DNA of 42,406 nucleotides from a virus (Duplodnaviria > Heunggongvirae > Uroviricota > Caudoviricetes), in the IMG/VR virus record IMGVR_UViG_2534682160_000015, positions 1 through 42,406 of that record; one strand, given 5' to 3'. The position numbers were made by a program. Positions 24,001-27,000 of the stretch are shown here, in pieces; within the stretch, counting starts at the first letter, position 1, and the number at the start of each line of letters is the position of its first letter.

Positions 24001-27000
24001 CGCATTCAATGACACGATCACTCATCCCGGAAGCCCGGGGATCGTAATCTGCAGCTGGTTAGCCAGGGAGTTAATCTCAGCGACCAACACTGGCTTCGTA
24101 TAGCGCCATGCTGCCAGCCCTTGTCCGCAGAAGCTCGCCATGTCTTTCTTCTGGTCAAACTCATGACATTTCATGTTGAGCTGCGCACTTAAGCTGTTGC
24201 GATGCTGAAGTTCTCCGGTGAAGTAGTCATCGAGGACTTTATAGGCCGCGTACTTGAACCCGGGGTTTAACCAAGCCGCATAATCGTAAGCAACAAACTT
24301 CCCGCCATATGTTCCACCGTGTACACCGCGCTCAGTAAAAACCACAGATTCGTGGTTTTTCTCCAGCTCGGCTAAGAACTCTTTGGTCTGCTTGTTTCGC
24401 AGGTAGTGGTAAGGCGATTCAGATTCACTTTTACCACTGGCTTTCCACATATCAGTGAGGCAGATCATGCCATCTTCACCGATACGAATTGGTTGATTGA
24501 AGAGGGTTAATGATTTCATAGCGTGTACCTACTCTTTGAAATGAACCTTTGCCGCACAGGAAACCAGCCCACCGAGGCTCGCCAGCACTAACTGGTATCC
24601 TCAAAGGCCCATTCCAAAGGGGCAGGTTCGGTGTAAAAACATGCGTTGCGGTACGCATTTATTGCAAAAAGCCCCGCATCGCGAGGCTCATTAAATGGAC
24701 TTTGTGATTTGCAAAAAATTATTTCAGGCATTGCGTCCTGATGTATTCCTGCAGGTAGTTAACCTGCGCGGTTATCTTGTCGATTCCACTTCGGAGACGG
24801 TAATAATTGAGTTCAGCATCTGCTGTAAGTCCTGGGCTTTCTCCATCGCCCATGCCGCTGGCTCCGGTCGTTGACTTTGCACAGGTGGCGGCGACTTGCA
24901 GGCGCTTACGACCAGCAGAAACATCAGCACGGAGGCTTTCGATAGTCGCGTTAGCATCAGCAAGCTCCTTTGTGTATCTGGCGTCGAGTTCTGCTACATC
25001 ACGTTGACGCTTCTGCATGTCAGCAATTGTGGATGCGGCCTTATCGCGCTGCTCTTTGTAGGCGATGGCGTTATCACGGTAGTGATTAACAGCCCATGAC
25101 AGGCAAACGATGATGCAGATAACCAGAGCGGAGATAATCGCGGTTACTCTGCTCATACCTCAATCTCTCTGACCGTTCCGCCAGCTTCTTTGAATTTTGC
25201 AATCAGACTGTCAGCCTTATGCTCGAACTGACCATAACCAGCGCCCGGCAGTGAAGCCCATATATTGCTGCAACGGTCGATAGCCTGACGGATATCACCG
25301 CGATCAATCATCGGCAAAGCGCCACGCTCCTTAATCTGCTGCAATGCAACAGCGTCCTGGCTTTTCGGAGAGAAGTCTTTCAGGCCAAGCTGCTTACGAT
25401 AGGCATCCCACCAACGGGAAAGAAGCTGGTAACGTCCGGCTGCTGTTGATTTGAGTTTTTGGTTTAGCGTGACAAGTTTGCGAGGGTGATCGGAGTAATC
25501 AGTGAATAACTCTCCGCCAACAATGACGTCATAACCATGATTTCTGGTTTTCTGTCGTCCGTTATCAGTTCCCTCTGACCACGCCAGCATATCGAGGAAC
25601 GCCTTACGTTGATTATTGATTTCCACCATCTTCTACTCCGGCTTTTTTAGCAGCGAAGCGTTTGATAAGCGAACCAATCGAGTCAGTACCGATGTAGCCG
25701 ATGAACACGCTCGTTATATAAGCGAGATTGCTACTTAGTCCGGCGAAGTCGAGAAGGTCACGAATGAACCAGGCGATAATGGCGCACATCGTTGCGTCGA
25801 TTACTGTTTTTGTAAACGCACCGCCATTATATCTGCCGCGAAGGTACGCCATTGCAAACGCAAGGATTGCCCCGATGCCTTGTTCCTTTGCCGCGAGAAT
25901 GGCGGCTAACAGGTCATGTTTTTCTGGCATCTTCATGTCTTACCCCCAATAAGGGGATTTGCTCTATTTAATTAGGAATAAGGTCGATTACTGATAGAAC
26001 AAATCCAGGCTACTGTGTTTAGTAATCAGATTTGTTCGTGACCGATATGCACGGGCAAAACGGCATGAGGTTGTTAGCGCAACCTCCTGCCACCCGCTTT
26101 CACGAAGGTCATGTGTAGAAGGCCGCAGCATAACTATCACTGATGAATTCAGGATAGCCAGTGGCTACGGCTCAGTTATGGTGCTGGTTAACGGACTTGA
26201 ACCGCTACCAATTCGCTTACAAGGCGACTGCTCTACCATTGGAGCTAAACCAGCATATTTGGCGGGACAGCGTGGACTCGAACCACGATAAGAAGGTTAA
26301 CAGCCTTCCGTAATGACCTTTATACGACTGACCCAAATAAAAAAGCCACCGTTGCAACTTAAGAGTCACTAACGGCAGCTTACCCTCTAATTATGGCTAA
26401 ATGGCTAATTGCATGTCAAGGCTTTTAACAGCAACATGCTTAACTTTCTCAACACGTTTACGCATTTTAAAAGCATTTTGCATTGGTTGGTACAAAACAA
26501 ATAATGACGCTTTCAGGATATCGTCAATTTCGTTTCTACAGGTTGCCAGTGAAGGTTTTCTCCATCCCTCGCCACCGCGTCCACACATCTTGCGTGGCTT
26601 TGCAGTCGCGTGATAGTAGGATGCAATTGCTCTCTTAGATGAACCATGAGCGTAGTAGCTGAGGAGGATGCCAAAGGCTTTCTTGTCAATGTACATGACG
26701 GAATCGACGACCTGAGAAATCAACATTCCATCATCATCATTGCACATTGGCCTTGTCATAACTCTTCCCGGCTCTACGCTCTCCATGAACTTCGCTATTA
26801 CGCTGCTCATGCGCTTTTCAAGACGACCTGAATAAACCCATGCGCCCCACAGTTCAAGCCAGCCATTCAGCCACTCGTGCTGTTCTTTGGTGAGGTTTAG
26901 CTCTCTTATGCTCATCGTCTTCCCTTTTTGCCTGGCGTGACCATCAGGACGCCGTTAACTATTACGTGACGCTCGCCTTTGCTGTCTCGGTTGTACTTGA

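Follow-up and report, generated by a model that had tools for sequence, protein, structure and literature searches.

What kind of lysis cassette does a phage carry when its virion genes resemble those of P22, while its holin and endolysin look like those of lambda? This question is raised by the window analysed here, a stretch of 42,406 nucleotides (nt) from a virus of the Caudoviricetes (IMG/VR record IMGVR_UViG_2534682160_000015, positions 1 to 42,406), in which the interval 24719..25936 holds the four lysis genes S, R, Rz and Rz1. A sequence-only reading had placed a lambda-type cassette in this interval, and its bounds are exact: in our listing of open reading frames (ORFs) they open with the start codon of S (25936) and close with the stop codon of Rz (24719). 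All four genes are on the minus strand, a point that had been left unstated. We conclude with high confidence that these genes form an intact late lysis cassette, a lambda/P22-type recombinant that is transcribed leftward, and that it belongs to an E. coli/Shigella temperate phage or prophage of the P22-like (Lederbergvirus) type. Its lambda-type part comprises the leader, S, R and Rz up to codon ~32, while the periplasmic domain of Rz together with all of Rz1 is of P22/HK97 type.

The lysis genes

All four lysis genes are of full length, and no frameshift or stop codon relative to functional homologues was found in them. S and R overlap by 17 nt and R and Rz by 4 nt, the same as in the lambda reference record (NC_001416); the protein and nucleotide figures given throughout come from global alignments. 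PHROG matches for the four proteins name them holin/anti-holin, endolysin and Rz-like spanin. The family and structure matches given below for S, R, Rz and Rz1 are too strong to be due to chance. Established in this analysis are the gene structure with its reading frames, the identities and family memberships, the mosaic junction, and the surroundings of the cassette in the genome.

The holin S shares 106 of its 107 amino acids (aa) with lambda S (99.1% nt identity), the sole change being R105G, and is identical to Sf6 gp60 over all 107 residues. It lies further from P22 gp13 (88.9% aa identity) than from its lambda counterpart. S reaches the equivalog TIGR01594 holin_lambda with 127.3 bits against a cut-off of 55.05, and matches Pfam PF05106 (Phage_holin_3_1) with 105.3 bits against a cut-off of 23.8 (2.4e-30). 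The gene opens with the dual-start motif ATG-AAG-ATG at 25936..25928, encoding Met1-Lys2-Met3, with Met1 at 25936 and Met3 at 25930. From these features S is predicted to be a class I holin, made as the antiholin S107 from Met1 and as the holin S105 from Met3. In lambda, the sdi stem-loop regulates initiation at S107 versus S105. The start region AAAUCCCCUUAUUGGGGGUAAGAC-AUG-AAG-AUG, including the stem-loop just upstream of both starts, does not vary among the window, lambda, Sf6 and HK75 in a four-way alignment, which bears out the dual-start holin proposed earlier, and the stem-loop is likely the sdi element that would set the S107:S105 initiation ratio here as well.

The single difference from lambda S lies at codon 105 (25622..25624, minus strand), where glycine replaces arginine in the charged C-terminal tail and leaves it with one positive charge fewer; Sf6 shares this change. 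In lambda S, the charged C-terminal tail tunes lysis timing.

R shares 155 of 158 residues with lambda R (98%; 95.4% at the nucleotide level) and 97.5% with Sf6 R, and matches the solved structure of lambda lysozyme (PDB 1am7) over residues 1-158 at 3.7e-104. Its translation shows the catalytic Glu19 within a WSEGT motif. Furthermore, a Kyte-Doolittle scan of R flagged no hydrophobic segment resembling a signal peptide or a signal-arrest-release (SAR) sequence, which fits dependence on the holin for export. R would therefore be, as far as its sequence tells, a lambda-type endolysin, i.e. a soluble lytic transglycosylase of the kind represented by PDB entries 1am7 and 3d3d. In the majority of E. 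coli genomes, R is labelled 'glycoside hydrolase family 24 protein' by RefSeq, despite its 98% identity to the lambda transglycosylase. The untranslated S leader follows the same pattern, being identical to lambda at 233 of 241 positions (96.7%), and its mean column identity in the four-way alignment with lambda, Sf6 and HK75 is 98%. The claim that S, R and the upstream leader are essentially those of lambda thus holds.

The P22-like virion module of this phage might instead lead one to expect a P22-type cassette (genes 13-19-15), and there is indeed a likeness to P22 in Rz (89%), in Rz1 (57 of 61 residues) and, to gp13, in S. However, R has no real similarity to P22 gp19, with 17.8% identity in a forced global alignment, S is nearer to lambda, and the Q gene, the late promoter pR' and the tRNA genes upstream are of phage-21 type. 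A cassette of P22 type throughout is therefore extremely improbable: for R it is refuted, which leaves it true of no more than the distal Rz and Rz1.

Spanins and the junction within Rz

Rz matches Pfam PF03245 (Phage_lysis) at 1.8e-35 over residues 34-143 and phrog_13 at 6.9e-73, and carries an N-terminal hydrophobic segment at residues 1-26. Its amino acid identity is 57.8% to lambda Rz, 89.0% to P22 gp15 (129 of 145 residues), 95.2% to Sf6 and 97.2% to HK75. Sliding-window nucleotide identity shows where these affinities change: lambda-like DNA, which takes in the membrane anchor, stops at ~25060, at about codon 32 of Rz, and identity to lambda falls abruptly from ~95% to ~54% across the junction. 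By blastn, the part of the gene at 24719..25045 matches P22 gene 15 over its full length at 93.0% identity, whereas lambda covers only 37% of it, at 78.9%. Conversely, the first ~12 residues of Rz follow lambda, not P22. In Sf6, a 'bsq7; boundary sequence' is annotated at nt 70-117 of Rz, which is the same site as the junction found here. Rz is thus predicted to be an inner-membrane spanin (i-spanin) that combines a lambda-type N-terminal transmembrane domain (TMD) with a periplasmic domain of the P22 gp15 type.

Embedded within this distal part is Rz1, for which the sequence-only reading had claimed a position wholly inside Rz in the +1 frame. This is confirmed, since Rz1 begins 199 nt into Rz (199 mod 3 = 1), and 53 nt separate its end from the stop codon of Rz. 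Relative to the length (L) of Rz it spans 0.46 L to 0.88 L; for ~70% of embedded spanins, the outer-membrane partner (o-spanin) has been reported to start at 0.4-0.5 L and end at 0.9-1 L (PMC6139136). An AAGGAG Shine-Dalgarno sequence lies 7 nt upstream of the Rz1 ATG, and the product has a signal peptide and a lipobox, V-S-A-C20, that fits the pattern [LVI][ASTVI][GAS]C and is followed by Lys-Ser. Under the Lol sorting rules, Asp at position +2 matters for the destination of a lipoprotein, and because +2 is Lys rather than Asp in Rz1, sorting to the outer membrane would be expected. Rz1 matches Pfam PF06085 (Rz1) at 2.2e-20 and phrog_3198 at 8.2e-29. It is 98.4% identical to its HK75 counterpart (60 of 61 residues), 95.1% to that of Sf6 (58 of 61), and shares the 57 residues mentioned above with a +1-frame ORF of P22, but only 23 of 63 (36.5%) with lambda Rz1.

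Short out-of-frame ORFs are common, and our listing contains many of them in this region; moreover, RefSeq lists no Rz1 in the closest E. coli prophage. Could the Rz1 frame then have arisen by chance, or could the cassette be what a defective prophage in decay has left behind? The family matches of Rz1 argue against this, as do its proper Shine-Dalgarno sequence, signal peptide and lipobox, and P22, Sf6 and HK75 all keep the ORF intact, with no more than 1-4 amino acid changes. Since, in addition, the four genes are of full length with the overlaps of lambda, and a complete set of phage genes is found in the window, we give neither a chance frame nor a decaying remnant any real credence. The RefSeq annotation of that closest prophage gives no Rz1 inside the gene it calls 'lysis protein'.

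The mature lambda Rz1 has Cys29 and 10 prolines, including a penta-proline run (PMC5295617). Rz1 of the window lacks any cysteine beyond the lipidated Cys20, and has 5 prolines in total, all in the mature part, with PPP replacing the lambda PPPPP. Kongari et al. (2018) placed the o-spanins of Sf6, P22, HK75, CUS-3 and HK022 in an 'HK97' family, apart from their 'Lambda' family (PMC6139136, Table 4). Given 36.5% identity, no Cys29 and no penta-proline run, Rz1 falls outside the lambda o-spanin family, and its sequence points instead to a lipoprotein of the outer membrane, an o-spanin of the HK97/P22 family. For function of the lambda spanin, a disulfide at either Rz C152 or Rz1 C29 suffices (PMC5295617). 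The periplasmic Cys92 and Cys143 of Rz in the window align with lambda Cys99 and Cys152, so that cysteines for a homotypic intermolecular disulfide are predicted to be available in this spanin pair, on Rz. Having no periplasmic cysteine in Rz1, this allele could presumably use the Rz disulfide only.

These alignments also decide whether the entire cassette, Rz and Rz1 included, could be the lambda allele. Nucleotide identity to lambda is 92-99% across S, R, the leader and codons 1-32 of Rz, as one would expect if it were. Past the junction, however, the sequence matches P22 gene 15 at 93% nucleotide identity, Rz1 lacks the cysteine and the proline run of lambda, and the o-spanins of Sf6, P22 and HK75 are classed apart from the Lambda family. 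An all-lambda cassette is therefore very unlikely; for Rz and Rz1 the alignments refute it, and its validity is limited to S, R and the leader. Accordingly, the earlier designation 'lambda-type' is correct for S, R, the leader and Rz up to codon ~32, but fails for the distal two thirds of Rz and for all of Rz1, which are of the P22 gene-15/HK97 type. The check it had suggested, an alignment to lambda S, R, Rz and Rz1, gave near-identity for the first two proteins and, for the other two of the four (58% for Rz, 36.5% for Rz1), the substantial divergence that had been named as refuting.

The joint lies at the boundary between the anchor and the periplasmic domain of Rz, and forms a clean case of lambdoid mosaicism within a gene. 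As a consequence of this location, the C-terminal domain of Rz and the Rz1 embedded in it, which must interact, travel as one allele, and by their sequences they appear to have been inherited together as the P22/HK97-type version.

Points that weigh against the assignment

Several observations nevertheless count against an intact cassette that is expressed and works as in lambda, and these should be considered together. R gave no match in Pfam-A (down to E = 1) or in NCBIfam, and because of this its assignment was made through the identity to lambda R, PDB 1am7 and PHROG. The Kyte-Doolittle scan of S, a crude one with a 19-residue window and a threshold of 1.6, flagged residues 9-27 only, the first TMD, and was given no weight as evidence. 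Lambda S has three TMDs, with its N-terminus out and its C-terminus in, and the regions of all three are identical in S of the window. Folding of the 76-nt stretch around the S start was no better than that of shuffled sequences (z = -0.02), so that the sdi assignment rests on identity to lambda and not on thermodynamics. Lastly, both the leader and the sequence after Rz contain terminator-like hairpins, at which expression would be blocked if Q-modified polymerase did not read through, and such read-through is assumed here. No evidence was found, however, that contradicts the reading of an intact lysis cassette.

Table 1. Features of the lysis region and its surroundings, in window coordinates.
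Feature	Position	Strand	Remarks
Q antiterminator, phage-21 type	26397..26915	-	172 aa; Pfam Phage_antitermQ 1.1e-25, phrog_943 1.8e-93
Candidate late promoter pR'	26390..26419	-	TTGACA-18-CATAAT; 11 of 12 consensus matches; overlaps 3' end of Q
tRNA-Asn (GTT)	26260..26334	-	Late leader; ARAGORN; Rfam tRNA 55.3 bits
tRNA-Thr (TGT)	26179..26254	-	Late leader; ARAGORN; Rfam tRNA 60 bits
Untranslated S leader	25937..26177	-	241 nt; homologous to lambda 44945..45185
Leader hairpin	~26052..26092	-	GGCAGGAGGUUG...CAACCUCAUGCC, then GUUUUGCC; -25.8 kcal/mol
Stem-loop AUCCCC-UUAUU-GGGGGU	25942..25958	-	Just 5' of both S starts; in minimum-free-energy and centroid folds
S (holin)	25613..25936	-	107 aa; begins ATG-AAG-ATG
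R (endolysin)	25153..25629	-	158 aa
Rz (i-spanin)	24719..25156	-	145 aa
Mosaic junction	25040..25075	-	Rz codons ~28-39; lambda identity ~95% to ~54%
Rz1 (o-spanin)	24772..24957	-	61 aa from its ATG; +1 frame of Rz
Two tandem terminator-like hairpins	24641..24689	-	Just after Rz stop codon; fold -25.1 kcal/mol
KilA-N + ORF11CD3-domain protein	24022..24519	-	165 aa; directly downstream of Rz
phrog_875 protein	23750..24025	-	91 aa; Lys/Ala-rich tail; late operon
Two small opposite-strand genes	22636..23135	+	DUF2158 (71 aa, 3.9e-18), DUF6953 (79 aa, 6.4e-18); between lysis genes and terminase

Flanking regions and genomic context

Upstream of the cassette, the Q gene appears from its sequence to encode a late-transcription regulator that is not lambda Q, and its Sf6 homologue is annotated as 'similar to phage 21 Q'. 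The promoter site homologous to the candidate pR' is annotated as pR' in Sf6 and HK75, where it is described as 'nearly identical to phage 21 late promoter', and the candidate in the window probably drives the cassette transcript. Between this late promoter/terminator region and S lie the two tRNA genes, as in phage 21 and Sf6; the tRNA-Asn is found at the same position in Sf6 and in a prophage of E. coli FJ_Ec_21. Homology to lambda starts at 26177, 2 nt downstream of the 3' end of tRNA-Thr, and the tRNA edge thereby coincides with a mosaic junction. An Rfam scan of the cassette and leader gave no RNA family besides the two tRNAs. The strong hairpin in the leader is kept in lambda, Sf6 and HK75, the copy in the window having a C-to-A mismatch in its 3' arm, and looks like a putative terminator or processing element of the late leader.

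Downstream of Rz, the first of the two tandem hairpins (24689..24669) is followed by UUUUUG and the second (24658..24641) by GUUUUU. A terminator is annotated in HK75 at the site homologous to the first, and the second was also found by a consensus terminator scan; both may act as terminators. That scan gave 8 sites in total against 2.2 expected, most of which fall within genes, on the non-coding strand, and were dismissed; only the hairpins after Rz agree with the HK75 annotation.

The genes for the KilA-N/ORF11CD3 and phrog_875 proteins follow, and after them a DUF2560 gene. Because Sf6 has the unrelated genes 65-68 in place of the KilA-N and phrog_875 genes, this appears to be a variable accessory slot. 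The opposite-strand DUF2158 and DUF6953 genes are possibly a two-gene accessory unit (moron). Altogether, ~2 kb of small accessory genes separates Rz from the small terminase subunit, beyond which lie the large terminase subunit and a P22-type portal (Pfam P22_portal, 1.2e-169). The stretch of 25 kb that reaches from the tailspike to Q has 92-94% nucleotide identity to CUS-3, Kapi1 and HK620. As such, the cassette does accompany a P22-like virion module, as had been noted from the sequence alone, although it is not joined to it directly, given these ~2 kb.

Besides the genes already mentioned, the window has those for an integrase, an O-acetyltransferase, a tailspike, the anti-repressor Ant with its sar RNA, DNA-transfer proteins, coat, a DnaB-like helicase, a repressor and RecT, and by this gene content it appears to be a complete P22-like genome. 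It begins exactly at the ATG of the 385-aa integrase, with the putative O-acetyltransferase next (1475..2086; the whole region 1..2086 on the plus strand). The record may accordingly be that of a phage or prophage, cut at the gene for the integrase, and the putative O-acetyltransferase hints at a role in serotype conversion. In the P22-type immI region (5149..6119), the sar antisense RNA (Rfam RF00262, 97.4 bits; 6052..6119, plus strand) overlaps the 5' end of the Ant gene (5149..6081, minus strand). Family matches of the 778-aa tailspike (2713..5049, minus strand) are essentially confined to the head-binding domain, which makes up the ~115-200 residues at its N-terminus. No strong PHROG match was obtained for the receptor-binding part, and its specificity may therefore differ from that of characterised relatives.

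A putative course of lysis

The lysis mechanism proposed here is carried over on the basis of near-identity to lambda and P22 proteins of experimentally shown function, and in the same way we infer expression, lysis timing and the enzymatic and fusogenic activities. Judging from homology, transcription would start at the phage-21-type pR' under control of the phage-21-type Q antiterminator, and Q-modified RNA polymerase would read from there through the two tRNA genes and the lambda-like leader into S-R-Rz/Rz1. Initiation at Met3 would yield the S105 holin and initiation at Met1 S107, an antiholin by virtue of its extra Lys2, with the upstream stem-loop fixing the ratio between the two. S105 would build up in the inner membrane, trigger at a programmed time and make very large holes, through which the cytoplasmic R, a lytic transglycosylase acting through Glu19, could exit and degrade the murein. 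Once freed from the cell-wall meshwork, the Rz/Rz1 complex that spans the periplasm would disrupt the outer membrane, probably through fusion between the outer and inner membranes. A role of Rz/Rz1 spanins in disrupting the outer membrane has been described (PMC5295617, PMC6139136).

What does this cassette mean beyond its own annotation? Apart from correct annotation, its significance is small. Automated labels omit Rz1 in the closest E. coli prophage and, in most genomes, call R 'glycoside hydrolase family 24', and as a result, pipelines that rely on labels miss or misname parts of the cassette. It might be speculated that a lambda S with R105G, a lambda R, a chimeric Rz and an Rz1 without periplasmic cysteine would together behave measurably unlike the cassette of lambda, possibly with altered lysis timing, or with a spanin wholly dependent on the disulfide at Rz Cys143. 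We consider this rather unlikely, and if true, the altered behaviour would be common to Sf6 and the many phages with the same alleles, instead of being peculiar to the window.

Comparison with known systems

The hybrid cassette is already known, as both it and the mosaic joint inside it are annotated in Sf6 and relatives. Matches to the 1.8-kb region occur in 346 phage records, of which 37 cover at least 80% of it, with the best matches in CurroJimenez_Bas106 (98.2%), HK446, HF4s and Sf6. Among 5426 complete E. coli genomes, 5032 have at least a partial match to it and 521 a match over at least 80%. The best of these is the prophage of E. coli FJ_Ec_21 (98.6%), in which the genes follow the order Q, tRNA-Asn, tRNA-Thr, holin, hydrolase, lysis protein, KilA-N, hypothetical protein and terminase. 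The same cassette with its neighbours is annotated in Sf6, HK75, CUS-3, HK446 and CurroJimenez_Bas106 at 97-98% nucleotide identity.

Sf6 (NC_005344, genes 60-64) has the same order of phage-21-type Q, pR', tRNA-Asn, tRNA-Thr, leader, S107/S105, R and Rz with embedded Rz1, at 97.2% nucleotide identity over window positions 26914..24726, and shares the mosaic boundary bsq7. The homology ends at the Rz stop codon (24726), after which the window continues with the KilA-N/ORF11CD3 gene and Sf6 with genes 65-68; apart from these downstream genes, the two differ in a few point differences only. HK75, HK446, CUS-3, HF4s and CurroJimenez_Bas106 are close equivalents of the Sf6 lysis region.

Lambda (NC_001416, 45186..46427) shares the four-gene architecture, the overlaps, the dual-start S with its stem-loop and the embedded +1 Rz1. 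In contrast, its Rz is 153 aa long instead of 145, and the Rz periplasmic domain and Rz1 represent another allele. Furthermore, lambda has its own Q and orf-64 upstream, where the window has the phage-21-type Q, pR' and two tRNAs, and the window has no bor downstream of the cassette. P22 (AF217253, genes 13-19-15), finally, resembles the window in Rz (gp15), in an unannotated +1-frame Rz1 ORF, in the holin and in the type of its virion module, whereas its endolysin gp19 is unrelated in sequence to R, and the first ~12 residues of its Rz are of a different type.

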